A stretch of 64,000 nucleotides of DNA from Schmidtea polychroa. Lineage: Eukaryota. The stretch lies in NCBI GenBank assembly GCA_044892525.1, contig CM097885.1, forward strand, positions 8,558,001 through 8,622,000. Reading direction: 5' to 3'. The position numbers and the translations under genes were made by a program. The notes beneath the pieces were generated by a model. It searched no databases. It was given only the letters and a program-made list of their open reading frames with translations, and was not told the DNA's origin. Every line of letters begins with the position of its first letter. Positions within the stretch are counted from its first letter, which is position 1. Positions 3,831-37,142 of this stretch are shown here, piece by piece.

Positions 3831-6111
3831 CATCAAAGAATTGTGATAGTTCGTGTACTTGAGAAACTGCATCATTCGGAACCAAAATTAGTAGAAATTA
3901 TCTTTATTACTTCAATTTGCGCTGTTGGGCTTAAATATTTGGTTGGTTCCACCAGGTCGTTTAATAAGTTCTATCAACACTCGGTCAAGTATTTTATTAG
4001 GAAAAAAGGAGGAATCTAAAGGGAAATACATTTGGAAATACAACGTTGAAAAAAGTAACAGGTTGCAGTGCTTTTGTTTTATTACTGTTTACTAATATTT
4101 GAACATTTATAAAATCAATTTGAAGCGTGCACTTTTAAACATTTTAATGAGTTTTTAATTTAATTAATTTAAAACACCGTATAACAGGCATTTACCAAAT
4201 AAACAATTGACTTCATGTTACGCACAAAACAGGATGTACAGTAAGAACATATTCATAATATATTATGAAGAACAGCTAAACAACAATCGAATTTCGTTTG
4301 TAATGTCAATAATGTTAATTTCGTAACTAGAAATTTATTGCATCTCATCACGTCCTTCTGACTGACTGCCCGTGCTAAACTTGTCATAATTTTTGGATTT
4401 TTATGGTCGGTCGGGCCCCACAGCACGGCTATATCAGCTACCACAGTAGTTGCGCCACTCATTCCAGATTGATGTTAATGCCGCTGTCTCAAAATATCAT
4501 TCGTCTATATTCACGATCAATATCTAACTAACTCTCTTCTAGTCTAAACTCTTTCTTGGCATATATTTTCTGCGTCTCAGTGAACAATTCCTGGGTTTCA
4601 TAGTGTCATACGATTCTATCTCAACTCACTCTGAAATTCAAAACTAAATTTTAGTTTCATTTTTATATCATTAAAAAACAAAATTCGGAATTTTTGGTCA
4701 TGATATGAGTTCGTTTCGTAACCTAAATGTTTCACTTCTCTAAATGTCTATGACCTGCTCAAGTGAAAATTATTAATTTTTATGAATTCAAGAAGTAAAA
4801 TGTAAAAATTAAAGAATTTTGCATATCGATTTACCAAACATAAATATAAAATCCATAAATAACAGTATAACCTTACTGTTGTATGCGCATGAATGAATCT
4901 CGTTTTTTTTCAATTGATCTCTTAGATTCTGGTGGTTATTAATTATGGTTTGATGGATTGTTTACTTAACTTATAAATGACATTTGGGCACATTTCATCT
5001 CCTTCCGCTCCTAGACGTAGCCATTTTGTAGTCAAAATCTTTTTAAAAATTTGCATTTTCATATTAAAAAATATTTTCAATAACATTTAAATTTCAATAA
5101 CAATATTGATTTAAATAATTTTCTTAGATTTTAAAAAATATTAATTTTATTTTTTTACAAAGTTTGGAAATTAAGTTACAAATAAATTCGAAAAACACTG
5201 AAAAATTAACATTAAAAAACCAATATTTATAAAATATTTGTTTATCTATAAAAACATTTAAATATTGAAATTTCAAAAGTAAGAGGAAATAATTATTATT
5301 TATAATTATGATTTATGAATGTTGAAAAACTTTGAAATATTTTAATAATTGATTTATTTTCACAATTATTGAAACATTCGAGTCTGACAAAATATTTCGA
5401 TTTTTAACATTTTCACATATTAAGTTTATTGATTTATTTATTTTACTCTATTCTAACTTTTGGATCATTGAAATATCCTTATCCAATTGTGGATCATTCC
5501 CTTTATATTTATAACCATAACGAGATCATTAGATCAAAGGCTAAAACCCCACAATTCCTGAAATACATTAATAACCGGTTTAGCGTTACAGAGTAAAATT
5601 TTATTCAAATCTTTTTCTTTAAAAATTGAATGAAATTTTTTTGTTATTTTGTTAAAAGGTATTTGAATTAACAATATTGATTTTTTGTTAAATTTCTATT
5701 TTTGCTCTGATGATTTTGAATTTCTTTCTAATCTGTTCAAATAAATTCTAATTTTAGATAAAATTCTTTAAATTAATATTTTTAAATATTAATTTTTATA
5801 TTTTGACCTATTTTTAATTTTGATTTTCTGTTATTTAAATTTCCATCAAAATTTTACTTTTTGTTATCAAATTTTAATTTAAATAATTTTGTAAGATTTA
5901 AAATAAATAAAAAAACAATGAAAATTAACATTAATAAAATTTCGAATTACGCTAAAGCTAAAATACAATATTTATAAATTGTTTGTTTATCTACATTAAA
6001 ATACAAATTATAAATATTGAAATTGTAAACGTCAGAGGAAATAATTAATATAATAAGTATGATTTGTGAAAATTGTTGATAATGTTGAAAATTTTGTTAA
6101 TTTTAGATAAA

Positions 6112-7566
6112 ATGTTTTCAAGCATATGGGAAATGATGAAGAGAAATAAATTTGAATTTGATAATGAAATCAGCAATGAATTGATGTGCAGAATTTGCAA
6201 ATGTTTAATGATAAAATCTTGCCAAGCTCCTTGCGGGTGTCACTTTTGTTCTGATTGCATTGAGCATTATTTGGAAGGAAAAGATAAATTCTGTCCAGGA
6301 GCAGCAAAATATTGTGAAGTTCTAACGATTCTTTTCACTAAAGATGTTTCTGTGGATCATTCAGTGAATTTAAAAATATCTGAAGTTATTGTAAAATGTC
6401 CAATGCAAAATTGTGAATTCAAAACCGAGTTGTGCATGATGGAGAGCCACATGAGAACATGCAACAAGCAGCCAATCAGATGTCCATTCAATAGAATTGG
6501 ATGTGAAATGAATGAGGTGGTAAAGGACGAAATGAAAGCCCATCTCAATGAAAACAATGAAGGCCACAGCAAATTATTGATTGATCAGACAAGTAATTTA
6601 TGCAATGAGATGCAAGCAATGAGAGATCAGAATATGAAATTGCGTAACGAAATTATCGAATTGAAAGGAGAAATGACGCAATTCAAACAACAATTTGATA
6701 AAATCAATGTAAATTTTATTTGTAATTGATTTAATTGTTATTTGTGATTGTAGGTGAAATTGCGCAATATTGAAAGGAAAGAGGTGGAGAACAGAGCAGA
6801 AATAGAAGAATTGAATGAGGAAATGGTGGCAGTGAAGAATGAGAATCGCTCATTGAGAATGGAGATTGAGACAAATATTGGATCGATCAATCAAGTTTGA
6901 TTATTGATTTGATTTATTATTGAATTTTTATTGATGCAAAGCAGGTCAGACAGCAAATTGAGGTGATTGAATCAAAATGTCAACAGCGGCTGCAACGGGA
7001 GAATGAAAAGGTGATTTATTGTTTTTTTTGAAATATTTGAATTTGAAATTCAGTTGCAGCTTGAAATGGCGAATGATGGCGCCAATGAAAATCGGCCGAT
7101 AAAAAGAAAAATAGCAAATGAAAAATATATAAATTATGGATTTTTGGAATGGCAAATCGATGAATTTTCACAACAAAAGAGAATAGAATGGATTTTCAGC
7201 GAGGCATTTTATTCCGGGCCAATCGGTTACAAAATGTGCTTGTGGGTGAGCATTGGGAGTTTTTATGTTTGGGTTGGTTTCTGTGTGATGCGTGGGGCAA
7301 ATGATGAGCAATTGGATTGGCCGTTCAATCAATCGGTGACAATCGATGTGATCGATCCAGCAAATGGCAGCATTTATATGAGCAAGTCAATGAAATATTC
7401 AGATCGCCCTGATGATGACAGATGGAAGAAACCGTCAAAGGACAGAAATATTCCAATTTTGATTTATGATGATGATGATCGCTCATACTATCCTTATCCT
7501 GATGGCTCAATCTATGAATTAGCAGCCAAAAATGATAAATTGCTGCTCAGGTGCAGAATTGAATAA
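6112..7566 (+). CDS. TRAF-family protein (RING, TRAF zinc finger, coiled coil, MATH domain); exons 6112-6708, 6754-6894, 6945-7010, 7054-7566
   Basis: RING CRIC..CGCHFCSDC..CP, zinc finger CP..CEF..HMRTC..CPF..GC, and MATH motifs FSEAFYSGPIGYKMCL and MRGANDEQLDWPF. Three phase-0 GT-AG introns (45, 50, 43 nt) keep the frame open. Confidence 0.9.
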
Positions 7567-10850: not shown

Positions 10851-13800
10851 TTAGTCCTCATCAGACAAAATAACGTCATCGATATCGATATCATCTTCTC
10901 CAAAATCTTCTCCAATATCTTCATTAAATTCTTCCTCATCTTCTCCAACATTTTCTCCAATATTTAATTCACTTAATCTTACATGCCCATATGCTAAACT
11001 AGTATTTTTCCCCACCCAAACCCTTTTGTCATCTGCGTTAGTGCTATTTTTGTGTTTTTAATTGTAAAAATTTGATGATTTTTGCTTGTTATATTAGTCT
11101 GAGGAACCGAAAAAATCTGGTTAGTGTTATAACAATCCAGGTATGACTGATGTTTTATGTCTCTACCTTTCAACGTTACACCTTTAGCCTTTTTTGTTTC
11201 CTCATCACCCAACAAGCTATAACATTTAGGTCTAAGAAAAACCCATTCCTTATATTTAAGACCTTTATTCTCGTCTTTGAACTTTCCAATGACAGAATCA
11301 AGGTTCTTACTATATAAGGAATGACAACTATTGTAATTGGAAGTATCTAATAAATTATCTCGAATCATTGCAGGTAAAAGAACCTCAAGTTTACAGTTAA
11401 TGACTTCGAGGAAAAAAGAATCTGTATCACCTGCAACGATATTAATTTTACAATTAAACTCATTGCGAAATGATTCCAGATCCTTATATTGCAATTCATA
11501 CATTCTTAGTTTAGATAGATCAAGTACAGATTGACCAATGTAACTTGGTCTATCTAAACATATAGAATCTGAATTCAATAATGCCGCGATTAAATTATCG
11601 TCTATTTTAATAGATTTTTTAAAAGTCGGCTTTGAAGAATATTTAACTAATTTACCGGCAGTTGTACAAACACGAAGATTCATTCTTCTCTTTAAATTTT
11701 CAACTGTTTTGCCGTATAAACTGTTATTTAACAATTTATAATAATTTTTATCTAAGTTATTTATGCTTTTTGACCTTAATTCTGTATTTGTATTTATATA
11801 TTTTTTAAAAATTGGAGATTGCTTAAATCTTACACCCCTATTTACACGTGTTACTTTAACACCAAGTTCCAAATATAATTTTAATAATCTCCAATGAATC
11901 ACATAATTAGATTTTGGAAGATGAGTTAATAATAATTTTTCAACCTTAGACCCAGCAGGTTTCATTTTTTCAGCAGCTACAGGGAAATCATTCAACTTAT
12001 CATGAAGCTCAGAAGGAATTACAAGATCAACTTCAAGAGTGTATCCATAAGACAAAGATTCAAGATTTAAATTCCTACATTCATCCATTATTAAATCAAA
12101 TCCATCAAGAACCCAACTAAATTCGCCACAAGGTAATGATTGACTTAAAGCCCAACCATAAAGATTATTAATATCTATATAAAGTAACTCGGTGTTCTCA
12201 TTGGTTTTTACGTAATGCTTATTCACAAAAGTAAGACCGCCTCTTATTCGACCCTCATAAAAGCTAAACATTTCGTTTTCAGTTATGAGCTCAATTGGTT
12301 CATTTAAAGACATTAATGCAGAAGACCAAGACATACCTGGAATTCCGAAATAATTCAATAGTTCCAATCTATTGTGAGCAATAGATTTCAACCGAAACTG
12401 ATGAAAGAAATCAGCCAAAAGAAAACAATCAAGTTTCAAGTAGATCATCATATAATCTAATAAAGTTACGCAATTAGTTTCTACCCAAATCTCCTGAGCT
12501 TTTTCATACTCAAGCTCAGTGACACCTTCCCAGATTGGTGGTAATTCATAAGTAGTTTGGAGAATATCTAAAGATGTAGCGAAATTATAAGGGAAGATTC
12601 CTTTTTCAGAAACTATAGTGCCAGAAAAAACAGAATTAGTAAAAGGCAAAGAATTCAAAGTTTTGACTGCTTTAGCTAAAGAATCATTGACAAATTGATA
12701 AGAATCAATGAATCTTAAGCTAATTTTGCCTAAATGAGCAATCAAAGAAATAAATTTTTCAGTCGTTATTGGGATGCAACCTAAAGTCCAATTTTTAAAT
12801 TTATTTAATCCATATTTAAGTATATGGTGCATATCGTATCCCTTCAAGTTGTGAAATACGATAAGCAAAATTTTTTTTATTTTCCTATTTATGTTACATG
12901 TGCTACAAGCTGCACCCAAGTATTTCCCCGTAAAATGATCGTGATCTCTAACAGGATCGACGATAGATTTCATACAAAGATAACAAACAGATGCACTAAC
13001 AAATTGACGTTGTTCAATTTTCGTTAATTTAATCATTGGTTTCCTACCCATTTTATAATAAAAAAGGAAGAACCTTATTTAATGCTATATCCTCTATAGC
13101 ACTTAAAAAACTCTCGACGCAATCTAAACCTATGAACTGTTGATATGATTTAGATCCGTCAAAGTTATTTACAAGTAAAAGACCAGCAGATATTGGCATG
13201 TGTCGTTGGAAATGAACATTATCAAAAGGTAAAATAGCCTCAAAATCGGCATAAACTACAAAAGGAGGAGTAACTGTTTTCAACCAGTGAGTAAACTGCA
13301 ATAATTTATTTTGAGGGAAAGTGTAAAGAGTTGTTCCTAATTGATTACGTTTACATAATATTTCATGTTTTTCCAGTGCGTGTTTATACCTAAACCCATT
13401 CAAACACCGATGGCACCATAATGATTGTATGCGTGTAGGATAAGTAGTGTTGATACCACAATTCAGTAACCTATTTAAATTACTTATAGCAACGTAATGG
13501 AAATTGTTTCCTTTATTCAATGGTAGTAAATTAATTACAGTTCCATTTAAAACTTTGGAACGATGTATAATGTCTAAATGTGGATGTTTTAATACATAAT
13601 TATCAGTTAATTGTTTGCTATTATCATATGAAAAAACATTAATTATTAAACCCGGATTTTTAGATTCAAATTTCTTAATGTCTTTTAATTTCATAGGTAA
13701 TTCTAACGGGTCGTATACTAAGTCAGATAAATTATAACTCGATGTCCTATTTCTAGCATAACTACTAACTTCATCATATTTTAAAATAGCTAAAATGCTA

Positions 13801-14703
13801 TATAAAAAACATGAATCATCAGTGTTTTTTATATTAATTAAACAATATTTATTTTTTAGATAAGTAGGTCTTTCAATGAAACTCCTACCACTTAATCTAC
13901 TTAACCTACTTATTTTTGTTATGGTGAAGTGGATTTCTGTTATATTTTTTATAATCCAACTACTTCCTAACTCGGTAATATTAATAATTTTCTCATTTAG
14001 TTCCTTAATGCCTTCATCAAAAAATGATGCAGTTAAAGGCTTTGCATAATTTGAGATATTATTAACCTTTATTTCCCCGTCTTTTTCAAATTCGATTGTT
14101 ATTCCGAATTGAATTTTGACGGAGTCTAATTCGTTAATAATATCTCGAAATTTTATAATTAATTGTTCAGGAAATATTATTTCCTTTATATTTAAGTCGC
14201 TAGTATTTAAACTTAATATTTGATGGGTACCCCTTAGATCTTTTAGTATTATGGGAACATTACCCCCTATTTGTATTATATTTAATCCATCCCAAGAATC
14301 AAAGGAAGTGAATAATCCATCATTGGATTCAACAACCAATCCGACCTGGGATTCAACAAAAGGCAATCCGACCTGGGATTCAACAACCAATCCATCATTG
14401 GATTCAACAAAAGGCAATCCAACCTGGGATTCAACAAAAGACAATCCGACCTGGGATTCAACAAAAGACAATCCGACCTGGGATTCAACAAAAGACAATC
14501 CATCCTGGGATTCAACCTCTAATCCGACCTGGGATTCAAAAGAAGAAGTATCTAATTTAATTTTTTTATTAGTAATATTTTTTTCTATAGTCAAAGGTCG
14601 TTTAAAAACAACATCTTTTTTAAAATTAAACATATCTAAATGATTTTTATGTTTATTATAAAAAACGCTATATGTTACAGGGTCACTAGTCTTACATACG
14701 GGA
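10851..14703 (-). pseudogene. Protein-primed family B DNA polymerase (pPolB), frameshifted, 5'-truncated at 14703
   Basis: Motifs YADFE (ExoI), HNLKGYD (ExoII), YIDINNLYG, KLLNNSLYGK, AGDTDS, and an endonuclease VII-like DHDH..G..C..CN insert. Frameshifts near 13060 and 11035. Confidence 0.92.
14310..14540 (-). repeat. Coding minisatellite of 24/27-bp units (FVESQVGLS), 9 units
   Basis: Directly visible. The inverted arm has 7 units at ~15440-15612. Confidence 0.9.
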
Positions 14704-17141
14704 ATTCTTTAATAGAAAACGTTATGAATGTTCGAGAAAAATTTCAGGAATTTGGTAAATTTTAATTTATTTATTAATTAATTTATTAATTAATTTATTA
14801 ATTAATTTAGATAATATTAATGAAGACAATTTAAAATCAAAGATTACAGGAAATTTGAAAAGAAAAAGTAAACATAATTTTTAATTTATTGATTTAATTA
14901 ATTAATAATTTAGGTAATACGAATAAAGAGAAAAATTATGTCAATGTGTCAATAAATCGAAATGAAAATTTACAATGTAAGTATTGATTACTTTTTTATA
15001 ATTTAAAGGAAATTTAATGTAATTTTTTATTTAAGTAAATGTTAATATTTTTAATTTAGTAAATTTTTATTTTTTAGTAAATAAAATTTGTAAAATAATA
15101 ATAATTTGCAAATTTTTGCGTAAACATTTATTAAAATATTTCATTTAAATTATATTTTTTTTTATAGGTATACTTTATCCAAATTATTGTTCATCGAAAG
15201 AACATGATAATAATTGCCATTCTATAATGGAGAATTATTATACGAAAAAATATTATAATAAAACTTATTTTATATGTCCCGTATGTAAGACTAGTGACCC
15301 TGTAACATATAGCGTTTTTTATAATAAACATAAAAATCATTTAGATAGGTTTAATTTTAAAAAAGATGTTGTTTTTAAACGACCTTTGACTATAGAAAAA
15401 AATATTACTAATAAAAAAATTAAATTAGATACTTCTTCTTTTGAATCCCAGGTCGGATTAGAGGTTGAATCCCAGGATGGATTGTCTTTTGTTGAATCCC
15501 AGGTCGGATTGTCTTTTGTTGAATCCCAGGTTGGATTGCCTTTTGTTGAATCCAATGATGGATTGGTTGTTGAATCCCAGGTCGGATTGGTTGTTGAATC
15601 CAATGATGGATTATTCACTTCCTTTGATTCTTGGGATGGATTAAATATAATACAAATAGGGGGTAATGTTCCCATAATACAAAAAGATCTAAGGGGTACC
15701 CATCAAATATTAAGTTTAAATACTAGCGACTTAAATATAAAGGAAATAATATTTCCTGAACAATTAATTATAAAATTACGAGATATTATTAACGAATTAG
15801 GCTCCGTCAAAATTCAATTCGGAATAACAATCGAATTTGAAAAAGACGGGGAAATAAAGGTTAATAATATCTCAAATTATGCAAAGCCTTTAACTGCATC
15901 ATTTTTTGATGAAGGCATTAAGGAACTAAATGAGAAAATTATTAATATTACCGAGTTAGGAAGTAGTTGAATTAAAAAAAATATAACAGAAATCCACTTC
16001 ACCATAACAAAAATAAGTAGGTTAAGTAGATTAAGTGGTAGGAGTTTCATTGAAAGACCTACTTATCTAAAAAATAAATATTGTTTAATTAATATAAACA
16101 ACACTGATGATTCATGTTTTTATATAGCATTTTAGCTATTTTAAAATATGATGAGGTTAGTAGTTATGCTAGAAATAAGACATCGAGTTATAATTTATCT
16201 GACTTAGTATACGACCCGTTAGAATTACCTATGAAATCAAAAGACATTAAGAAATTTGAATCTAAAAATCCGGGTTTAATAATTAATGTTTTTTCATATG
16301 ATAATAGCAAACAATTAACTGATAATTATGTATTAAAACATCCACATTTAGACATTATACATCGTTCCAAAGTTTTAAATGGAACTGTAATTAATTTACT
16401 ACTATTAAATAAAGGAAACAATTTCCATTACGTTGCTATAAGTAATTTAAATAGGTTACTGAATTGTGGTATCAACACTACTTATCCTACACGCATACAA
16501 TCATTATGGTGCCATCGGTGTTTGAATGGGTTTAGGTATAAACACGCACTGGAAAAACATGAAATATTATGTAAACGTAATCAATTAGGAACAACTCTTT
16601 ACACTTTCCCTCAAAATAAATTATTGCAGTTTATTGACTGGTCAAAAACAGTAACTCCTCCTTTTGTAGTTTATGCCGATTTTGAAGCTATTTTACCTTT
16701 TGATAATGTTCATTTCCAACGACACATGCCAATATCTGCTGGTCTTTTACTTGTAAATAACTTTGACGGATCTAAATCATATCAACAGTTCATAGGTTTA
16801 GATTGCGTCGAGAGTTTTTTAAGTGCTATAGAGGATATAACATTAAATAAGGTTCTTCCTTTTTATTATAAAATGGGTAGGAAACCAATGATTAAATTAA
16901 CGAAAATTGAACAACGTCAATTTGTTAGTGCATCTGTTTGTTATCTTTGTATGAAATCTATCGTCGATCCTGTTAGAGATCACGATCATTTTACGGGGAA
17001 ATACTTGGGTGCAGCTTGTAGCACATGTAACATAAATAGGAAAATAAATAAAAAAAGGAATCTTCCCTTATAATTTCGCTACATCTTTAGATATTCTCCA
17101 AACTACTTATGAATTACCACCAATCTGGGAAGGTGTCACTG
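14703..17141 (+). pseudogene. pPolB 5' part (plus arm) with three upstream phase-1 micro-exons
   Basis: Near-identical to the minus arm. Exons ..14754, 14811-14867, 14914-14976 and 15168.. splice in frame. Lesions are a TGA at 15968, frameshifts, and a ~265-bp deletion at ~17055 that removes ExoII. Interrupted at 17141 by the viral insertion. Confidence 0.85.
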
Positions 17142-17323
17142 TGTTTGCGGTGTGCTTCTCTTTATGAACTTGGGAAATGGGGGGGGGGGCGTCGGGGGGC
17201 TCCTATATCTATAGCACGCCATGGCGTGCTTATTAATAAACCATGGTTTATTATGAGATATAGGGGCCCCCGACGCCCCCCCCCATTTCCCAAGTTCATA
17301 AAGAGAAGCACACTGCAAACACA
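17140..17323. repeat. Left terminal Y-shaped hairpin
   Basis: A ~70-bp stem (TGTGTTTGC..CCTATATCT / AGATATAGG..GCAAACACA) encloses two palindromic arms, AGCACGCCATGGCGTGCT and TAATAAACCATGGTTTATTA. Confidence 0.95.
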
Positions 17324-17741
17324 TGACTGCGTGGGAGTTTATAAAACATATATAGTAAAGTACAGGCAGATGCGTTTTCCAAGAATGGCATAGTAATAAA
17401 TGCCTTTACTTTACTATAATATTTTTAATGATGAGTCATAAAACAATGACTGCGTGGGAGTTTATAAAACATATATAGTAAAGTACAGGCAGATGCGTTT
17501 TCCAAGAATGGCATAGTAATAAATGCCTATACTTTACTATAATATTTTTAATGATGAGTCATAAAACACATTAATCAATAATATATAAACACACTAACTC
17601 GTTTATCTATCATTTACAAATGAATAAGAGTTTATAAAACATATATAGTAAAGTACAGGCAGATGCGTTTTCCAAGAATGGCATAGTAATAAATGCCTTT
17701 ACTTTACTATAATATTTTTAATGATGAGTCATAAAACACAA
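17323..17741. repeat. Three copies of a ~120-bp sub-hairpin ITR unit (single inverted copy at ~22855-22978)
   Basis: Near-identical units, each with an 18-bp inverted repeat, a GGCAT-N8-ATGCC stem-loop and ATGAGTCAT. Confidence 0.93.
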
Positions 17742-17765
17742 AACTAAAATTTATTAAATAACAAA

Positions 17766-20642
17766 TTAAGTGTCCGAAAATCCTGCACGCATACCAAAAT
17801 TAGTCCAGTGTGGTTTCTGAAATCTTGCGACATTATGTTTTACCATGGGAAATATGTCATCTTCTGTTGGTGTTTCGTCAGACCGAATCCAATAATAAAA
17901 CGGTGTACAATAAGGAACAGATGGAGTCATCCATTTAGTTGTTGGCTGCCACCATAAACCGTCTTTACTCTGTAATTCTTCTTTCGAATATATTCGACGA
18001 ATATTAATAGCTGGAATTTTCCCATACATTTCTATAGTATACGATATCTTCCAATTAAATGTGCAAGTTAATTGAATTTGATTTCCACTAGGACCAATTA
18101 TAGTATTAAGTTTAATGAATAGCGTAGGCATGGGATTATGTTCAGATACATCAGGGGCTTCTCAAGTTTTACGATATTCGTCGACAGCTATAGCTTCTTC
18201 TGTAAACCATCTATCAGCAAGTTCTGACTTATCTGCAGGCTTCATTTTTTTATGAACTGTATTGATCGTAGCTGCAAAATCATAAGTCACATTAGAATCA
18301 GCATATTTTCTAGTCCATTTATGATATCGAATTTTAGAAGGATAAGGAGCAACTCGTTTATCAGAAGTTCGAGTACTTCTTCCTAACGCACACATGTAAC
18401 TAAATGGTTTAACTACTTTACAATTAAAATAATCAAAGCGATTCCAAAATACTGGATCTGTATCTTTTAAATTGGGATCTGCCAAATCAGTTCTTTGATG
18501 CCACATTTCTGTAATATACCTGGGATATTTAACTTTCGATGCTGTATAATCATACTCAATACTTTCTCCAGTATTACAATTAATAATTTCAACTTCCGGA
18601 CATGTCTCACATATATATATCCATCCTGCTTTAGGCAACATTTGAGGTGTTAATTTAGACAATTGATTATTGACATTATAACCATTAAGTAAACTGGCTT
18701 CATTCAAAAAATAGTCTTTATAGGCTTTTGCTTTATTTTCGGGCATAGAACAGGGTCCGAATATATTCGCAGTGTCTTTATAAACCAACATTTCAACCTG
18801 ATTTTGTAATCCAGAAAAATTTTGTGGAGATGTTTCCCCAACGACCTGAATATTGAAGATTTCGTAGTGCATTGAGACTGGTTTCCACCATAAATATCTT
18901 TCCATTGCAGACCACAAATCCGGGTTACCGAACATAATATGAGGATAATAATATTCGAGCGGAATATTGTGCCATTCGCTTTGTTTGGTGGTGCCGATGC
19001 AAGAAGCTCCGCAATTGGTAGAGGTGAATTGCAAAGAGGTACCATCAAGGCTGGGTCGGAAGTCTCCTTGAGAATGTCTGAGTATTCCATTACCTCCACC
19101 AGAGCCGGGGACCCCAGAGGATGGGACAACGGGAGGAGCAGTTGTTGTTGACATTTCATGAACAGAAGAAATGATTTCTTTAATAGCTTGTTCAGTATAT
19201 AAGGACCCTCGTGTGCTCTCAACATGCTCTTTATGGCTATCTAGTATATGATTGGTTAATTCTTTATGATGTAATCTATTACGCACATCTACAGATAATT
19301 TCTTTGGCATCCGACGCACATATTCTTTAAGTTGTTCCTGTGTTGCCAATTTCCAGTCCTCGTGTTGATGAGATTGATGATGATTTATTTGATAGTAATA
19401 TTTTAATATCTGTAAATTTATCCTATTTAATTTCCGATCATGTAACATGTGATCATCAGGACCGTTACGATTGTACCATGTTTGGGCTATTTTATTATTT
19501 TTAATACTATGCAAATATGCGGTGAATTTATCATTTACATCTAATTTAGTTAATGATTTAATAGGGAGTTTTCGTGGTAATCGTCTTGTACTAGGATTCC
19601 AATAATGTCTGAATACTGTAGTTGTCCACTTGAATTGATTTTTACCATCAGGTGTCCATGCATACCATGAATTAGGTTCACTAGGATTATATGTTTGATA
19701 TGGATTTATCTTTTTGTGTTCCTCTGGTGTACGTAATATAAGATGTTCGTATAATTCTTTTTGAGGATCTTTTGAATCAAATTTAGGTAACTCCATTAAA
19801 TAATGCGTTTGAAACATGGCAGAAGTTAGAAATTTTGTAATGTTACCTTTGGAAGTTTCAACAAATTGCTCTAACATTCCTGGATTGTCATTAAAAGCTT
19901 TTCTTAATACATAATTATTATCGATTATTTCCTTTTTTATATCATTCTTATTCCACGGTATATTTACATTAGAATAACCATATAATTTTAACGCATTTAC
20001 ATAATATTTGGCTTTAGCTAAAAAGTATTCATATTGCTTACCAAACAAATTAGGGACATCTTTTGGCAATGGATTTTCGAAATTCTGATAACGATGAAAT
20101 TCATCTAAGATATTTTCTTCGGGAGACAAGTATTCGCTATAATCGAAATACCCATGATGTTCGCTTAAAGGCTTAAGATTATTCATTTCTTCTTCTGAAT
20201 ATTTTTCATATATATGTTCTCTTGGGTCCGGTAATACATATTCTTTATCAATAGATTCTTTTAAATGTTCTCCTATTACATCACCAGCTTCTACTAATCC
20301 TAGTATTGCAGCATCACTCATATTACCCCATTTAGATATTACTTTAGTATAAAAATTTTTACTTCTAAATAATGTAATAATTTTAGTAATTTGTGGATTG
20401 ATATATTTTCTATTTAAAAAATTAGTTATATTAGAGGTAAACTTTTGATTTAATGTAAGTGGCTTAAATAATTCACTAGTAAGAGATTTAAATGAATTCG
20501 AATGATATAATGGATTAAAACCAGAAGGTCTTTTCATGTCTGCTTGTAATTTTGTAATAAATTTTGATACATGTGGTTGTATAACCTGACTGTATAATAC
20601 AAATAACCTTTCACCAGCATTTATATAAGGAGAATTTGGCAT
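17766..20642 (-). pseudogene. Parvovirus-type capsid protein (VP) with one in-frame TGA at 18162-18164
   Basis: Gly-rich SSGVPGSGGGNG, then WKPVSMHYEIFNIQV (cf. parvoviral RPKxMxVKIFNIQV) and HNPMPTLFIK (cf. HPPPQIFIK). ORFs 18162..20750 and 17766..18131 are in the same frame, 10 codons apart. AATAAA lies just after the stop (17750-17755, minus). Likely major-VP ATG at 19154; the VP1 start is uncertain (20642, 20537 or later). Confidence 0.85.
18704..19225 (-). CDS. Overlapping alternative-frame ORF (173 aa) across the presumed major-VP start
   Basis: ATG-initiated and open for 173 codons in AT-rich DNA, with a hydrophobic stretch NIIILILCSV. Position resembles AAP/SAT. No sequence family recognised. 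Confidence 0.4.
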   Translation of the reverse strand: MLRAHEGPYILNKLLKKSFLLFMKCQQQLLLPLSHPLGSPALVEVMEYSDILKETSDPALMVPLCNSPLPIAELLASAPPNKANGTIFRSNIIILILCSVTRICGLQWKDIYGGNQSQCTTKSSIFRSLGKHLHKIFLDYKIRLKCWFIKTLRIYSDPVLCPKIKQKPIKTIF

Positions 20643-20644
20643 AA

Positions 20645-21944
20645 AATTTTTATAAGCGATCTCATAAACAACGATTATCCCGCGTACATAAAGTCTATAG
20701 CGACAGTGAAGAGCGGGGAAGCAGTGTATCTTCCGTATTGTCTGGCACATCTGTGTCCGATCTGCGAACTCCTACAAAGACTAGTTCGGTATCTAAAATC
20801 AAGCGATCTTCTAAGCACGTTTCCCGTAAACATAAGGCAAGGAGACACAATGATTCTGAGCATTGTGATATACCAGCTGTCAAAGCTGTTGATCAGTTGG
20901 TTTCAGATAATAAAACTCAAAATAATCATCAGGAACGATCAAGAAGATTTAACTCCTTCAAGTTCCAAGTATCTGTTACAAAATATCGATCTCTGGAGCC
21001 GGAACTTAAAAAACTCATGGAGGACAAGTCCTTTACAAGATTCGTTATCGGTCAAGAAGAGGAAGGTGATAATGGATATCACCATATGTAAATGTATTGG
21101 GAGGTATTATTATATTTATTCAATTTAGCTATTAATGGAATAAATATGATAATTACAGATTTACAACAACATGTCTATATATGCCTTTAGGGCAAAAACG
21201 GATATTCCCTTTGTCAGAGGAGTCCCAGGAATCGAACGGCAGTCCGCTATCGACTATGCAACAAAATCTGAGACAAGAGTTGCAGGAGGATTATCTGTAA
21301 ATATTGGGACTCAAAGTAAATACAATTGTGCATCTAATATAGATTATTTCAAACAAGCACTGAATTCTGCCTCGATGAAAGATGGATTAAATATTCTTAT
21401 GCAACACGAAGCTTTTCACTACACAACAAAGAGAAAAACCATAATGGAAACTTTCGTAAATAAATTCGGTCAATCAACTATGCCAAATTTTAATGACAAT
21501 TTTCTAATTGATAAAATAAATTTATTGGATTGGAGAAGCCACGTGTTTGTAGGAGAATTTGGCATAGGTAAAACCAATTTCGCCTTATCACATTTTAAGA
21601 ATCCGGTGCATTGTAAACACCTTCAAATGCTTAACAGAATTTCGGATAATGTTGATAAATGCGACGGAGTAGTGTTCGATGATCTTTATTTCAACAAAAC
21701 TCGAATAGAAGAATTTCTTTCGTTGGTAGATTGTGCATACGAGAATGTCATAAATATCAAATATTCGGTAGCTGTAGTTCCAAAGGGATTGTCCAGAATA
21801 TTTTGTATAAACGATTTGGACTTATTCTATCCAGAATGTATTTCACCAACAATAATGGAAGCTATACATAGAAGAATTAAAATTCATCATTTCCGAGGCA
21901 GAATTTTTAAAGAATACAAATCTGAACAAGTAAAATTTTTATAG
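20645..21944 (+). pseudogene. CRESS-DNA-virus-type Rep (HUH endonuclease + SF3 helicase), intron 21104-21158, one TAA at 21089
   Basis: Motif I-like FKFQV, then VIGQEE..GYHHM*MYWE (motif II HxQ if TAA was CAA), motif III IDYATKSETR, Walker A GEFGIGKT, Walker B VVFDD, motif C IFCIN and Arg finger AIHRRI. A 55-nt phase-0 GT-AG intron joins the frames. No in-frame ATG found; the frame is open from 20645. Confidence 0.85.
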
Positions 21945-22135
21945 TATTATTTATTAAATTAATATTAGACAATGAAACACCCGTATCAGATACAGAACCA
22001 ATGTCCCAGCCAAAATGTCGATTCCTCAGTATCCAGTGCAAATCCTGTATGAAATTCATGCGTATTTACTTGGGAGTGTGCAATAATAGTTTTTAGTGTT
22101 TAGTATATAATAATAAATGTTTTAAATAATAAATG

Positions 22136-22804
22136 TTAAAAGAAATTCTTTATTTTATCAAAAATATCATACTTAACATCATTCAATACATTTATATCTT
22201 CAAATACATTTATATGAGTATTAAATTCGTATGGTTTTTCTACAACGATATATAGAGAACGATTTTTAAGAGCTTGTTCATGCTCAGAGGCATATTTCCA
22301 TATAGGATGATTATTGGATATTATACAAGGGCAATTACTTAGTTCAATTTTTGAATCACCTTTACGAAAAACTTTTAGAAAAATATTACCTTCACATAAT
22401 AACTTTAATAAATTAACATTTTTGAAATCGCAATATATTTCTTCACCAATGATAATCTCTTTTCCGACACAGTCATCGAAACAAAATTCACTTTGAGTTT
22501 GTGCACCAGTAAAGAATCCATGTTTAAGTGTCCCACGACAAATTGCAGTAAATAATGTTTTCCCACCGTTACTTACTCCTTCTAATATAATGGTCTTGGT
22601 CTTTCCGGCTTGAGATGATAAGATTGTATATATCCCAAGAAGACGACGAATATATTTTTCATTTTCTTTAGGGATAATATGACGATTCTCAGAAATAATT
22701 TGATTAATTTGTCTATTGTGATCGCTGTTAAAATGGAAATTGTTGTTATTAATAAAAGCTTCCATAAAAGTTGATAATTCATTGTATAGTAATAGCTTAT
22801 TCAT
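22136..22804 (-). CDS. Stand-alone parvoviral NS1-type SF3 helicase (222 aa, no endonuclease domain)
   Basis: GKTKTIILEGVSNGGKT, EFCFDDCVGKEIIIGEE (cf. NFPFNDCVDKMVIWWEE), LKLLCEG..VFRKG and PCIISNN. Intact ORF with TATATAAA ~35 nt upstream of the ATG, next to the right ITR. Confidence 0.9.
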   Translation of the reverse strand: MNKLLLYNELSTFMEAFINNNNFHFNSDHNRQINQIISENRHIIPKENEKYIRRLLGIYTILSSQAGKTKTIILEGVSNGGKTLFTAICRGTLKHGFFTGAQTQSEFCFDDCVGKEIIIGEEIYCDFKNVNLLKLLCEGNIFLKVFRKGDSKIELSNCPCIISNNHPIWKYASEHEQALKNRSLYIVVEKPYEFNTHINVFEDINVLNDVKYDIFDKIKNFF

Positions 22805-22977
22805 TTGTAAATGATAGATAAACGAGTTAGTGTGTTTATATATTATTGATTAATGTGTTTTATGACTCATCATTAAAAATATTATAGTAAAGTAAAGGCA
22901 TTTATTACTATGCCATTCTTGGAAAACGCATCTGCCTGTACTTTACTATATATGTTTTATAAACTCCCACGCAGTCA

Positions 22978-23148
22978 TGTGTTTGCAGTGTGCTTCTCTT
23001 TATGAACTTGGGAAATGGGGGGGGGGGCGTCGGGGGGCCCCTATATCTCATAATAAACCATGGTTTATTAATAAGCACGCCATGGCGTGCTATAGATATA
23101 GGGGCCCCCCGACGCCCCCCCATTTCCCAAGTTCATAAAGAGAAGCAC
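22978..23148. repeat. Right terminal Y-shaped hairpin (inverted copy of the left, outer end truncated by about a dozen nt)
   Basis: Reverse complement of 17140-17323 with only a few substitutions and G/C-run length differences. Confidence 0.95.
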
Positions 23149-24811
23149 TCAGGAGATTTGGGTAGAAACTAATTGCGTAACTTTATTAGATTATATGATG
23201 ATCTACTTGAAACTTGATTGTTTTCTTTTGGCTGATTTCTTTCATCAGTTTCGGTTGAAATCTATTGCTCACAATAGATTGGAACCATTGAATTATTTCG
23301 GAATTCCAGGTATGTCTTGGTCTTCTGCATTAATGTCTTTAAATGAACCAATTGAGCTCATAACTGAAAACGAAATGTTTAGCTTTTATGAGGGTCGAAT
23401 AAGAGGCGGTCTTACTTTTGTGAATAAGCATTACGTAAAAACCAATGAGAACACCGAGTTACTTTATATAGATATTAATAATCTTTATGGTTGGGCTTTA
23501 AGTCAATCATTACCTTGTGGCGAATTTAGTTGGGTTCTTGATGGATTTGATTTAATAATGGATGAATGTAGGAATTTAAATCTTGAATCTTTGTCTTATG
23601 GATACACTCTTGAAGTTGATCTTGTAATTCCTTCTGAGCTTCATGATAAGTTGAATGATTTCCCTGTAGCTGCTGAAAAAATGAAACCTGCTGGGTCTAA
23701 GGTTGAAAAATTATTATTAACTCATCTTCCAAAATCTAATTATGTGATTCATTGGAGATTATTAAAATTATATTTGGAACTTGGTGTTAAAGTAACACGT
23801 GTAAATAGGGGTGTAAGATTTAAGCAATCTCCAATTTTTAAAAAATATATAGATACAAATACAGAATTAAGGTCAAAAAGCATAAATAACTTAGATAAAA
23901 ATTATTATAAATTGTTAAATAACAGTTTATACGGCAAAACAGTTGAAAATTTAAAGAGAAGAATGAATCTTCGTCTTTGTACAACTGCCGGTAAATTAGT
24001 TAAATATTCTTCAAAGCCGACTTTTAAAAAATCTATTAAAATAGACGATAATTTAATCGCGGCATTATTGAATTCAGATTCTATATGTTTAGATAGACCA
24101 AGTTACATTGGTCAATCTGTACTTGATCTATCTAAACTTAGAATGTATGAATTGCAATATAAGGATCTGGAATCATTTCGCAATGAGTTTAATTGTAAAA
24201 TTAATATCGTTGCAGGTGATACAGATTCTTTTTTCCTCGAAGTCATTAACTGTAAACTTGAGGTTCTTTTACCTGCAATGATTCGAGATAATTTATTAGA
24301 TACTTCCAATTACAATAGTTGTCATTCCTTATATAGTAAGAACCTTGATTCTGTCATTGGAAAGTTCAAAGACGAGAATAAAGGTCTTAAATAAAAGGAA
24401 TGGGTTTTTCTTAGACCTAAATGTTATAGCTTGTTGGGTGATGAGGAAACAAGAAAGGCTAAAGGTGTAACATTGAAAGGTAGTGACATAAAACATCAGT
24501 CATACCTGGATTGTTATAACACTAACCAGATTTTTTCGATTCCTCAAACAAAAATAGCAAGCAAAAATCATCAAATTTTTACAATTAAAAACACTAAAAT
24601 AGCACTAACTAACAAAGATGACAAAAGGGTTTGGGTGGGGAAAAATACTAGTTTAGCATATGGGCATGTAAGATTAAGTTATTTAAATGTTGGAGAAATT
24701 GTTGGAGATGAATTTGATGAAGAAGATGTTGGAGAAGATATTGAAGAAGTTGTTGGAGAAGCTGATATTAATGACATTATTTTATCTGATAAAAATTGTT
24801 TTATTAAATAA
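23148..24811 (+). pseudogene. pPolB 3' part (plus arm), nonsense at 24392
   Basis: Resumes the pPolB sequence right after the virus. Motifs YIDINNLYG, KLLNNSLYGK, AGDTDS and DDKR..AYGH. Confidence 0.92.
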
Positions 24812-34105: not shown

Positions 34106-36142
<2,037 letters not shown>

Positions 36143-36527
36143 CTAAATCTGTTTGCAAGTTATTAGGATGTCCATCTTTAAATAAAATATTAATTGCCTT
36201 GGACATTTCTTCTGCAGATTTTGCCTTGACTGGTATTGCTCGTGCAAACCTGCTGTATACATTAATACATGTTAAAATATATTTATTCCCATTGTTAATT
36301 TTCGAATAAGGTATCATCATCAAATCCATTTGCCATAAATCGTCAATACCAAATGTTTTATACGCTCTTGTTGGAAATCTTTTCCGCATTGGTTTGTTCA
36401 AACTGTACGCAAGCTGATCTGATAACCACTTCTGGGTTTCTTTTTTCGAATTCGGAACTCTTTTCTTTAATTTTGCCACTCCACCGAAACCGGCTTCGTC
36501 TTCTGGGTTCTTCCAAATCTTCTCCAT
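36143..36527 (-). pseudogene. rve integrase 5' exon (rest deleted)
   Basis: AGFGG..KL..WL..Q.AYSL.KP.RKRF, DLWQMDL, KYILTCI..SR.A.A.P.K.K and LQTDLG, followed directly by donor GT and (ATT)n. Confidence 0.88.
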
Positions 36528-36585
36528 TACAACAAGAAGATTTAAAATTAAATTTAATGTCGGGCAATGAAGGATTAGCACCCAT
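36358..36585 (-). CDS. Small ORF overlapping the integrase start, with an N-myristoylation signal
   Basis: MGANPS (Gly2, Ser6), SSCC, then a basic stretch. ATG lies 3 nt after the upstream stop. Confidence 0.45.
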   Translation of the reverse strand: MGANPSLPDIKFNFKSSCCNGEDLEEPRRRSRFRWSGKIKEKSSEFEKRNPEVVIRSACVQFEQTNAEKISNKSV

Positions 36586-36588
36586 TGT

Positions 36589-36855
36589 TTATGACTGTGT
36601 AACTCCACCTAATAATGATAATGCCAGAGGTATCAATGCACCAATAAATCCACCTTGTTGTTTATATATAATTTTCCTCATTTGCTTACGATTTTTATTA
36701 TTTACTAATGATAACAAAGGTTTCCTATGTTTGCTCAATAAATGCTTTTTTGATTTACTGATTTTAATTTTGCCTTTGACTACTTTAAGTATAATATTGA
36801 GTAAATCATCGACAACAAAATTTGGGAATGATTGCAATATATTCATTCTTTTCAT
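36589..36855 (-). CDS. Small basic Polinton protein with QQGG site and hydrophobic C-terminal helix
   Basis: KQQGGFIGALIPLALSLLGG. Its start overlaps the upstream stop. Confidence 0.7.
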   Translation of the reverse strand: MKRMNILQSFPNFVVDDLLNIILKVVKGKIKISKSKKHLLSKHRKPLLSLVNNKNRKQMRKIIYKQQGGFIGALIPLALSLLGGVTQS

Positions 36856-37124
36856 ACTCGGGCCTTTAACAATGCATTAAAAAATGGAAAACTGCGATGA
36901 TTTTTAACTACTTTTTTACCGGTTTTACGGGTTTTACGGGTTTGACGTTTAGGTTTAGGATTTTTCGAAATAAGATTCATTGCAGAGAAATTTTCAGTTA
37001 CAAGTTTTTTAGATGGTGTATAACTAGTTGTTGGTGGAACTTTTGGAACTTTTGGAACTTTAATACTCTTTCTAATACTTTTTCTTAATTTCCTAATATT
37101 TTTCACCCTTGCTTTTAGAAACAT
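36852..37124 (-). CDS. Lys/Arg-rich small protein (putative DNA-condensing core protein)
   Basis: Very basic 90-aa ORF tightly packed between the ATPase and the QQGG gene. Function inferred from composition only. Confidence 0.55.
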   Translation of the reverse strand: MFLKARVKNIRKLRKSIRKSIKVPKVPKVPPTTSYTPSKKLVTENFSAMNLISKNPKPKRQTRKTRKTGKKVVKNHRSFPFFNALLKARV

Positions 37125-37142
37125 TATTATTCATAGAGGTTT

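Follow-up and report, generated by a model that had tools for sequence, protein, structure and literature searches.

The 6,006-nt unit at positions 17142-23147 of the analyzed stretch of Schmidtea polychroa DNA (64,000 nucleotides of contig CM097885.1; hereafter, the window) is very probably what remains of a linear single-stranded DNA virus with hairpin ends, a defective endogenous copy that belongs to the group of "parvoviruses with auxiliary CRESS Rep". Flanked by inverted Y-shaped hairpins, the unit encodes a capsid protein (VP, minus strand), a CRESS-type Rep with a predicted intron (plus strand) and a 222-aa helicase-only homologue of NS1 (minus strand). In this one integrated virus, the capsid, the hairpin ends and the helicase are of parvovirus type and the replication initiator is of circovirus type. 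Many related copies, arranged in the same order, are found in the host genome. The features of the locus are as follows.

16114-17141, plus: 5' part of the insertion target, a gene for a protein-primed DNA polymerase B of Polinton/Maverick type that the element interrupts
17142-17323: left terminal palindrome (Y-shaped hairpin), with its border taken from the empty-site paralogue and small arms at about 17211-17233 and 17234-17253
17142-17763: left ITR region, consisting of the hairpin, repeat units 17335-17470 and 17458-17593 (spacing of about 123 nt), helicase leader and a third unit, 17628-17763
17766-20642, minus: VP, with about 480 aa of unknown fold, a linker rich in G and a jelly roll of the parvovirus type
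18704-19225, minus: accessory-protein candidate ORF, 173 aa, overlying the beginning of the jelly-roll region in the +1 frame
20645-21103, plus: Rep exon 1, an open frame without ATG, with a basic/Ser-rich extension
20651/20652: internal deletion breakpoint, placed by comparison with other copies
20706-21128, plus: remnant of a fourth ORF (C-terminal, about 140 codons) with a YLPxCLxHLCPxCELL motif, overlapping Rep exon 1 in a different frame
21104-21158, plus: predicted Rep intron, 55 nt, GT..AG, phase 0
21159-21944, plus: Rep exon 2, with motif III, central domain and SF3 helicase
22136-22804, minus: helicase-only NS1 homologue, 222 aa, with motifs GVSNGGKT, IIIGEE and IISNN
22783-23147: right ITR, with one repeat unit (22831-22966) and the right Y-hairpin (22990-23147)
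23148-24394, plus: 3' part of the same polymerase B gene (PF03175, 2e-19)

Results

Insertion site and borders

The element interrupts the DNA polymerase gene of a Polinton. An uninterrupted paralogue of this gene at 10994-13051 of the window represents the empty site and fixes the borders of the element at 17142 and 23147, exactly where an earlier note on this DNA had drawn them. In the comparison with this paralogue, no target-site duplication (TSD) was found, 18 bp of the target are gone, a 2-nt microhomology is present and the ends are clipped unequally, the outer hairpin arm having lost about 6 nt at the left end and about 17 nt at the right end; these features indicate a virus rather than a transposon and show that it entered the polymerase gene by end-joining. 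The recent integration that the same note had proposed is plausible, given that the flanks share 98-99% identity with the empty paralogue and that the two ITRs are nearly identical; the copy itself is more damaged than had been claimed. A polymerase B within the viral genome, as in Bidnaviridae, can be rejected: both halves of the polymerase gene are located beyond the hairpins, as parts of the host's Polinton.

Hairpins and ITRs

Both inverted Y-hairpins proved to be real, with folding energies that none of 200 shuffled sequences equaled in either case (left, -96.3 kcal/mol, z -20.9; right, -83.5 kcal/mol, z -16.6). The hairpin is retained in eight termini from five copies, and 10 of 71 base pairs still pair despite changes on both sides. 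The palindromes at both ends, seen in the integrated dsDNA form only, are those of a linear genome with terminal hairpins, as in Parvoviridae. The ITRs reach past the hairpins (17142-17641 against 22783-23147) and, as noted before, are nearly identical, differing only in the lengths of G/C tracts and the number of repeat units. The ATG and leader of the helicase gene (ORF 22804 to 22136) sit within the right ITR, and the left ITR copy of this leader reads ATG AAT AAG followed by a stop. Long ITRs carrying promoters are found in ambidensoviruses of the Junonia/Galleria type (Densovirinae).

The ITR repeat unit has conserved 18-nt inverted arms and a variable loop, and contains TGAGTCAT in 9 of 11 aligned units. 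The sole candidate for a CRESS-like nick site is a stem-loop whose TAGTAATAA-like loop is limited to the window lineage; across the 11 units, the loop differs and there is no covariation. A classical cressdnaviricot arrangement, with a circular genome and a nonanucleotide stem-loop origin, does not fit this ITR-bounded element with its variable loop.

The capsid protein

The VP frame contains a single in-frame TGA (18162-18164), and its first ATG past the deletion occurs at 20642, with an earlier one, at 20750, sitting in unrelated sequence. We searched for similar folds with a model built from L009, a sister copy whose VP shares 79% identity with that of the window copy over the domain; the model is itself of low confidence (pLDDT 44.5, pTM 0.47). 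In a structure search of 48,161 chains that did not use Foldseek, ranks 1-20 were all capsids of Parvoviridae (Z 10.1-15.3, 219-256 residues aligned), followed by a drop to Z 8.0, for a circovirus. With Foldseek, the check that the earlier note had suggested, every one of the PDB matches listed was a parvovirid capsid (best 1.5e-7), and the matches in BFVD were nearly all VPs of parvo- or densoviruses (best 2.9e-10). As modeled, the fold is specifically parvoviral, with the jelly roll of Parvoviridae.

Many members of Parvoviridae, although not all, have a PLA2 domain at the VP1 N-terminus. This domain is found in the sister copies, with PF08398 recognized in the VP of L013 (4.3e-10; 40.2 bits against a cut-off of 23.9) and PLA2 also present in L010, L011, L022, L019 and L020; it is absent from L009 and deleted from the window copy. 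Among the copies, VP is about 1,000-1,130 aa long. Only five matches to VP were found among 1.84 billion representative proteins. One match, P0007 (HMMER, E 9.4e-7), gives the same reading, judged by eye, as the VP of Parvo5097 over the stretches printed in the supplement of Buck et al. 2024, which makes that VP a direct match to the family. The candidate accessory frame (+1) is open for 158-178 codons in four copies and for 99-123 in two divergent ones, compared with just 27-56 codons for the +2 frame in those six.

A helicase-only NS1 homologue

The small helicase matches the parvoviral NS1 profile PF01057 (8.2e-13; 48.4 bits against a cut-off of 20), although only over profile positions 62-239 of 271, and its matches among PDB sequences, nine of nine, are to AAV Rep40/68 (Rep40 best, 6.5e-4). 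The NS1 of Parvoviridae is defined as an N-terminal HUH nuclease joined to an SF3 helicase; the homologue described here is just 222 aa, starts inside the ITR and lacks the nuclease. The helicase-only form occurs in every lineage examined, and the divergent copy L016 has the same length. In the sister lineage L023, an NS1-like helicase is not detectable, so this gene is not universal in the group. Searches of IMG/VR and of proteins of similar length in a set of 5.8 billion returned no match to the helicase.

The CRESS-type Rep

Exon 1 of Rep carries a motif I-like FKFQVSV (about 20957-20977) and a motif II that reads H-M-stop in the window, where the only nonsense codon, TAA at 21089-21091, occupies the third motif position; other copies have HMQ (L009 and L012) or HLQ (L021). 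Exon 2 carries YATK (about 21255-21266), the Walker A motif GEFGIGKT (21552-21575), the Walker B motif VVFDD and motif C, FCIND. Read directly, these motifs have the order of a cressdnaviricot Rep, in which an SF3 helicase comes after HUH motifs I-III. The GT and AG and the position of the predicted intron are retained in all four copies compared (55, 57, 55 and 56 nt), and its removal brings the spacing between motifs II and III to 37 aa, against 38 in P0002. Rep thus appears to be spliced; the contigs covering the family are unspliced and DNA-like.

Among 5.8 billion proteins, all four Rep homologues recovered carry PF02407, and the Walker A block GIGKTxFALxHFKNP is common to Rep and its database relatives. 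Rep itself matches the Pfam families Viral_Rep, Gemini_AL1_M and RNA_helicase in the right order, all below threshold, and hhalign over the CRESS motif II region gives a weak match (E 0.031). Rep and the small helicase show no mutual similarity (BLASTP E = 11). The mixed ancestry suggested by the earlier note gains support on each of these points: the VP fold together with PLA2 in sister copies, the PF01057 helicase, the CRESS-type Rep and the dissimilarity of the two helicases. In a tree of 43 Reps, those of the window family form a clade with the Rep of L023 (support 100/98), a locus that bears ITRs and VP, which counts for the antiquity of the Rep-VP pairing.

Damage to the window copy

The unit had been described as complete-looking, which does not hold: both hairpins are clipped and a central deletion lies at 20651/20652, where other copies have about 360 nt (L009) or 892 nt (L013) and a contig from run X1 has 937 nt. 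Missing are the VP1 N-terminus with the PLA2 domain, the Rep start (with the ATGs of L009 and L012) and the first 128 or so codons of the fourth conserved ORF, for which Pfam and the ESM Atlas offered no lead. The central region of the window copy was lost after arrival or was already missing at that time, and the copy carries two nonsense codons, the one in VP and the one in Rep, as previously counted. The gene layout reported before also stands, namely, VP on the minus strand, Rep with its intron on the plus strand and the helicase on the minus strand from the right ITR.

Known relatives and the direction of gene capture

The layout is not new, contrary to the earlier note, which knew of no described family with it. 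It has already been noted in a preprint (Buck et al. 2024, bioRxiv/PMC11071296), in a single sentence on parvoviruses with "auxiliary CressRep", and the group is little studied. The supplement contains 15 such Parvo entries, for example, Parvo3071 (BK066425), Parvo4688 and Parvo5097 "antCahCressrep" (BK066460). As in the window family, these entries join a CRESS-type Rep, a short NS1-class helicase and a parvovirus-type VP on one contig; the NS1s printed for the three are helicase-only (238-257 aa by our count), and their Reps share with that of the window family the signature ..GKTxFALAHFKNP.. and DGVVFDD, as judged by eye. The entries, as given there, are contigs from metagenomes or the SRA, 3.5-5.7 kb in length and in several cases called circular. 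The window family, by contrast, is present in many integrated copies in the genome of an animal and has visible Y-hairpin termini, long ITRs, a Rep predicted to be spliced and a VP of about 1,000-1,130 aa, with PLA2 in some copies.

The resemblance to Parvoviridae, especially Densovirinae, covers the termini (Y-hairpins in long ITRs), the capsid protein (PLA2 in VP1, a G-rich linker and a jelly roll of the T=1 type) and the SF3 helicase of NS1 type; the differences are the NS1 homologue without HUH nuclease, the presence of a CRESS Rep and the gene order. As in Bidnaviridae, the origin of which is thought to involve a Polinton (PMC4061559), a VP and helicase derived from a parvovirus are joined to a foreign replication gene. 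Compared by their descriptions, Oomyviridae (order Lineavirales, Cressdnaviricota; ICTV 2025; "parvovirus-like hybrid virus", NIH-CQV) are also similar: linear ssDNA viruses with a CRESS-type Rep and a PLA2 capsid once taken for parvoviral. Their likely hosts are stramenopiles, unlike that of the window family, and a second, NS1-type helicase is not mentioned in the descriptions consulted.

Oomyviridae bring up the opposite direction of capture, in which a linear CRESS virus like those of the Lineavirales/Oomyviridae, already endowed with ITRs and a PLA2-bearing, parvovirus-like capsid, later gained a parvoviral helicase domain. We regard this as a possible but clearly less likely course of events. 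It would agree with the features of L023, to which both Rep and VP are most closely related outside the family and which has ITRs of 243-273 nt and a divergent VP/Rep pair but no NS1-like helicase, and with the two architectures in the host genome, in both of which Rep and VP are adjacent and divergent while the helicase switches ends. Against it, four modules look parvoviral (promoter-bearing Y-hairpin ITRs, PLA2, the jelly roll at Z 15 and the NS1-type helicase) and one is of CRESS type; the simplest reading of the helicase-only form is truncation of an NS1 whose nuclease had become redundant; and NS1-like helicases are printed for Parvo3071, 4688 and 5097 in the Buck supplement.

Related copies in the host genome

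Our searches of the genome yielded at least 130 matches to Rep, 52 to the helicase and 56 to VP, which are lower bounds rather than copy numbers. The gene order is the same in L009, L010, L011 and L014 and partly so in L012 and L021, and it is kept at separate loci on C1, C2, C3 and C102, with 75-98% aa identity. Between copies, dN/dS is 0.05-0.20 in all three genes (VP, 0.09-0.20) at dS of 0.18-3.2, so the trio is a maintained design. None of the 14 other loci was shown to be fully intact, and protein database searches with the helicase and VP found no exogenous genome of this exact lineage.

The number of copies, some with open ORFs, their arrays on C3 and C4, the position of the window copy within a Polinton gene and the polymerase B near two other loci would suit a family that now spreads mainly within the genome, transposon-like or as a Polinton passenger. 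We consider this improbable compared with an infectious virus, given the lack of a TSD, the deleted target and ragged ends, and the purifying selection on the capsid gene. Polymerase B adjoins only 2 of the 14 other loci; the window copy has no close match (best aa identities: Rep 93%, helicase 98%, VP 94%); and related contigs reach high coverage in virome-type samples, e.g., 27,906x and 3,294x in the printed supplement (PMC11071296).

An assembly chimera, or nested insertion of a CRESS Rep fragment into a densovirus fossil, outcomes of a kind that the earlier note had named as refuting, has nothing in its favor except the unusual gene mix and is ruled out for practical purposes: the gene order is found again at several loci, with purifying selection on the genes; Rep has no flanking repeats; and contigs from runs X2-X4 of one study, possibly derived from the source sample itself, match the window exactly (0 differences), each over some stretch of the Rep region.

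Discussion

We favor an endogenous parvovirus-like virus with an auxiliary CRESS Rep. Pooled across copies, the gene set of the family comprises identical ITRs of about 0.4-0.5 kb, each with a terminal Y-hairpin of about 185 nt; an NS1 homologue that consists of the helicase only, its transcription running inward from the ITR; a putatively spliced CRESS-type Rep (HUH nuclease with its own SF3 helicase) overlapped by the fourth ORF; and, divergent from Rep, a long VP1 composed of PLA2, a middle part of unknown fold, a linker rich in G and a jelly roll of the parvovirus type.

By analogy with parvoviruses, the hairpins would prime rolling-hairpin replication, and PLA2, judging from homology, may act in cell entry. 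The CRESS Rep could supply the nicking and joining activity absent from the truncated NS1, along with the replicative helicase. A nuclease-free SF3 helicase beside a full initiator is also seen in AAV Rep52/Rep40, although the small AAV Reps are N-terminally truncated products of the initiator's own gene, whereas the two proteins of the window family come from separate genes of different ancestry; the PDB title of 9rwg describes Rep40 on the AAV capsid. By this analogy only, the NS1-like helicase would be a packaging motor, kept by the virus since a capsid of parvovirus type depends on a motor of its own. A division of labor, in which Rep nicks and replicates the genome and the NS1-like helicase packages it, thus seems likely for this family.

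Termini and insertion site

The viral element lies in an AT-rich window (mostly 20-37% G+C), on a contig of 272 Mb in an assembly of 781 Mb. It is bounded by inverted terminal repeats (ITRs), the outermost ~160-185 nt of which fold into Y-shaped hairpins of -96.3 kcal/mol (z -20.9) on the left and -83.5 kcal/mol (z -16.6) on the right, with none of 200 shuffled sequences as stable in either case. The hairpin is kept in eight termini from five host-genome copies, with compensatory changes, in that 10 of the 71 predicted pairs are retained with both sides altered. The left (17142-17641) and right (22783-23147) ITRs are almost identical, differing in homopolymer lengths and in the number of copies of a repeat unit of ~111-136 nt, which is present three times on the left and once on the right. 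This unit consists of invariant 18-nt inverted arms around a variable loop, with TGAGTCAT in 9 of the 11 aligned units. A CRESS-type nonanucleotide origin in the unit was considered and rejected, given that the loop motif varies among units and covariation is absent; the unit may equally be a promoter or an enhancer.

Features of the element and its flanks (window coordinates)
16114-17073 and 23195-24394: flanking ORFs, two parts of one protein-primed polymerase B gene (PF03175)
17142-23147: the element, with inverted repeats at both ends
20642/20750 to 17766, minus strand: capsid gene (VP), a single frame with one TGA at 18162-18164
20706-21128, Rep strand: fourth ORF
21104-21158, plus strand: predicted Rep intron, 55 nt
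21171-21944, plus strand: ORF of Rep exon 2
22804 to 22136, minus strand: helicase-only NS1 homologue, 222 aa

The polymerase B gene is host (Polinton) sequence and lies outside the viral element. An uninterrupted paralogue at 10994-13051, 98-99% identical to both flanks, sets the borders of the element at 17142 and 23147 and reveals an 18-bp loss of target sequence, a 2-nt microhomology on the left and the absence of a target-site duplication. The outer arms of the hairpins have lost ~6 nt at the left end and ~17 nt at the right end. This combination identifies the insertion as end-joining of linear viral DNA, not the work of a transposase. Polymerase B was dismissed as a preferred target, since just two of the 14 other host loci that we fetched for comparison have it nearby. 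The interrupted gene also lacks residues 61-148 of the paralogue (at window position 17052), a separate deletion ~90 nt upstream of the insertion.

Polinton copies form a nest in the surrounding region: two more polymerase B genes of Polinton type occupy 10994-14633 and 34106-37769. In the second of these stretches, polymerase B (34106-35989) is accompanied by a fragment of an rve integrase (36018-36608) and by an A32-like ATPase (37143-37769). Of the genes examined, only the host-type ORFs at 6073-7566 are clearly cellular; they have TRAF/MATH domains and weak U-box-like ones. Polinton/Maverick-like elements of the wider genome, as at L061 (G000:C1:10872500-10876500; ORF 1081-2490, minus strand), encode a 469-aa integrase in which a parvovirus-type phospholipase A2 (PLA2)-like domain (PF08398, 8.1e-10) is fused to the rve core (4.3e-12). 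Its gene adjoins those of a double-jelly-roll capsid protein and an A32-type ATPase. A PLA2 query against the host genome returned 2,339 first-look candidates, and the 150 that were scored are mostly ORFs of ~470 aa with ~40% identity.

A CRESS-type Rep and a separate NS1-like helicase

Rep exon 2 has four matches among 5.8 billion proteins, all with PF02407 and every one on a contig of ~2 kb. The alignment with these relatives contains YxxK, GIGKTxFALxHFKNP, DGVVFDD and the motif C asparagine. Exon 1 carries a motif I-like FKFQVSV and subsequently reads GQEEEGDNGYHHM directly before a TAA. Unbroken sister copies in the host genome read HMQ(V/M)YWE at this point, followed by GTATTA...AG; motif II of Rep is thus H-M-Q, and the stop in the window falls on its third position. 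The predicted intron, with conserved GT and AG, measures 57, 55 and 56 nt in three other copies, so that its lengths are not consistently multiples of three; with it removed, 37 aa separate motif II from motif III, compared to 38 in the database protein P0002. A 103-nt model (donor 21088, acceptor 21190) was ruled out by the sister copy L009, where motif II runs on as HMQVYWE. A contig of another copy from sequencing run X1, which is only guessed to be RNA, spans the intron unspliced; runs X2-X4 are DNA-like. Sub-threshold Pfam matches occur in the right order, Viral_Rep in exon 1 followed by Gemini_AL1_M and RNA_helicase in exon 2, and hhalign yields a weak match over motif II. Rep is shown to contain the HUH and SF3 motifs.

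The 222-aa protein matches Parvo_NS1 (PF01057, 8.2e-13) exclusively within the helicase part of the profile, and its best relative of solved structure is AAV Rep40 (6.5e-4). Its ATG and leader lie within the ITR; the left ITR has the same leader, with a stop after five codons. A helicase of ~222 aa is also found in the divergent copy L016, and no relatives were detected in IMG/VR or among proteins of 122-389 aa. The helicase and the Rep helicase show no similarity to each other (E = 11).

A parvovirus-type capsid gene

Sequence searches with VP yielded no Pfam match and no PDB sequence match, and residues 480-862 found nothing in a word-indexed search. When 1.84 billion representatives were searched exhaustively by HMMER with the unbroken, 1,029-aa VP of L009, only five proteins reached E ≤ 0.001, led by one at 2e-16. 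For the fold searches, we modeled the last 470 aa of the L009 VP with an 11-row alignment. Although the model is poor (pLDDT 44.5, pTM 0.47), in VIA-align, run without Foldseek against 48,161 representative chains, parvovirid capsids fill ranks 1-20 (Z 10.1-15.3, 219-256 residues aligned), after which Z falls to 8.0 with circovirus capsids. Foldseek against the PDB gave at least 180 matches at E ≤ 0.001, parvovirid capsids throughout among the matches listed, and BFVD gave 211 at the same threshold, nearly all parvovirus or densovirus VPs among those listed. The structure searches agree in showing that the modeled jelly roll of VP is of the parvovirus type.

The VP frame of several sister copies is ~100 aa longer at its N-terminal end and includes a parvoviral PLA2 domain (PF08398, 4.3e-10 in L013). 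The N-terminal 559 aa gave no lead in the ESM Atlas (score <0.8), and tblastn detected no similarity between the N-terminal half and the 'Cah' ORF of L023, an IMG/VR contig. A +1-frame ORF (18704-19225, minus strand) overlies the start of the jelly-roll region and has equivalents in L009, L011, L013, L015 and L016; across lineages, the frame stays open over 99-178 codons. This placement is reminiscent of the AAV assembly-activating protein.

A central deletion and a fourth ORF

The earlier note described the element as complete-looking, which does not hold: in addition to the clipped hairpin arms, there is a deletion with its breakpoint at 20651/20652, where L009 has ~360 nt, L013 892 nt and the X1 contig 937 nt. 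Missing from the window copy are the beginning of VP1 with its PLA2 region, the beginning of Rep (the Rep ATGs of L009 and L012 are absent) and ~128 codons at the 5' end of a fourth ORF. The count of one nonsense codon each in VP and Rep was correct but understated the damage.

The fourth ORF, on the Rep strand and overlapping Rep exon 1 in another frame, encodes 268 aa in L013 (5197-6003) and is conserved in L009 (2568-3134), L012 and the window. It contains the Cys/His motif YLPxCLxHLCPxCELL, and gave no lead in Pfam or the ESM Atlas (score <0.8). The L013 ATG of this ORF and that of VP1, on the opposite strand, are 15 nt apart.

Sister copies, gene order and selection

Searches of the host genome matched Rep 130 times, the helicase 52 times and VP 56 times; these figures count matches, not copies. 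Two architectures are found. The helicase lies beside Rep, with Rep on the opposite strand to helicase and VP, in the window, L009, L010, L011 and L014, and partially in L012 and L021; it adjoins the 3' end of VP in the divergent copies L015, L019 and L020 (45-65% amino acid identity). L017 and L018 are rearranged. The presence of the helicase leader and ATG in both ITRs may permit switching between architectures.

Comparison of the copies gives dN/dS values of 0.05-0.09 for both the helicase and Rep exon 2, and of 0.09-0.20 for VP, at dS from 0.18 to >3. Such low values in all three genes indicate that the lineages diverged with all three in use, which rules out an assembly chimera, a separate insertion of Rep or a chance nested insertion, and shows that both helicase genes matter; the recurrent gene order likewise argues against a chimera.

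Between the window copy and L012 (G000:C1:15183500-15190700), dS is 0.18 for the helicase and 0.81 for Rep exon 2, a fourfold difference between neighboring genes that suggests recombination between lineages. Clusters also occur: more than 30 matches to Rep residues 46-145 (42-49% identity) form an array at G000:C4:92.18-92.80 Mb, four Rep-fragment matches are spaced ~33 kb apart at G000:C1:145.07-145.17 Mb, and whole and partial elements are joined head-to-tail and tail-to-tail at G000:C3:28.09-28.16 Mb.

Relatives outside the host genome

Scanning IMG/VR with the Rep alignment recovered 38 loci, of which 30 are on contigs with direct terminal repeats, indicative of circular CRESS genomes. 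The only one of the 38 contigs with ITRs is L023 (5,699 nt; 243 nt at 98% identity, or 273 nt by a looser script), which also has the best Rep match (1e-36) and the sole VP match (1.7e-8). It shares the divergent VP/Rep pair of the window family and has, in addition, a 614-624-aa Pro/Thr-rich ORF; no NS1-like helicase was detectable in it. In an IQ-TREE phylogeny of 43 Rep rows, rooted at the midpoint only, six host-genome copies and L023 form a clade (100/98) apart from the other 36.

The earlier note knew of no described family with this layout. Parvoviruses with an 'auxiliary CressRep' had, however, already been reported by Buck et al. (PMC11071296), whose supplement names at least 15 'Parvo..._CressRep' proteins from sources that include wood mouse, bat feces, sea stars, flycatcher, ant, spider and flatworm. 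Judged by eye, the Reps in that supplement have the FALAHFKNP / DGVVFDD block of the window-family Rep. At 238-257 aa by our own count, the NS1s of its entries Parvo3071, 4688 and 5097 have the size of a helicase. The database protein P0007, a VP match of the window family (9.4e-7), is the same as Parvo5097_VP over the stretches compared, and the database protein P0005 and L023 resemble, by eye, the proteins of the flatworm-derived Parvo6041. Apart from Buck et al., we found no description of the three-gene layout in the literature. Oomyviridae (Lineavirales, ICTV 2025) are linear viruses that combine a CRESS Rep with a capsid containing PLA2, and they are attributed to stramenopile hosts. The whitefly ambidensovirus of PMC12297876 is a classical densovirus and was set aside as not relevant.

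Functional and evolutionary implications

The observation that motivated this analysis was real and well read. As a defective, endogenous copy, the element belongs to a virus group already glimpsed before and is not a new kind. The hairpins would prime rolling-hairpin replication; the CRESS Rep would nick and join, replacing the missing NS1 nuclease; and the small helicase would package, by analogy with AAV Rep52/40 at the capsid fivefold, a solved Rep40-capsid complex being available, to go by its title (9rwg).

A broader reading, which we put forward tentatively and consider rather unlikely, is that the elements represent a family-level lineage of animal ssDNA viruses, as yet unclassified, where two unrelated SF3 helicase genes share the two jobs of NS1, the CRESS Rep nicking and replicating and a helicase-only NS1 relic packaging. 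This lineage would perhaps still be active in the host germ line, or colonize it repeatedly. If so, the host genome would hold a natural series of architectures, with the helicase at either end, that documents the replacement of the initiator. How parvoviral NS1 arose from CRESS-type Reps, and how small DNA viruses exchange replication modules, are active questions.

Several features that the metagenomic contigs of CressRep-parvoviruses lack can be read from the locus and its sister copies: real termini with Y-hairpins in long ITRs, against a suggestion that relatives are circular; a conserved predicted Rep intron; a VP1 PLA2 domain; and evidence of selection on both helicase genes. The locus and these copies further reveal a fourth ORF and two architectures, and they render testable the hypothesis that the initiator was replaced and the packaging helicase kept. 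By landing in a Polinton polymerase gene, the element offers a small natural case of the contact between parvoviruses and Polintons that has been invoked for the origin of bidnaviruses.
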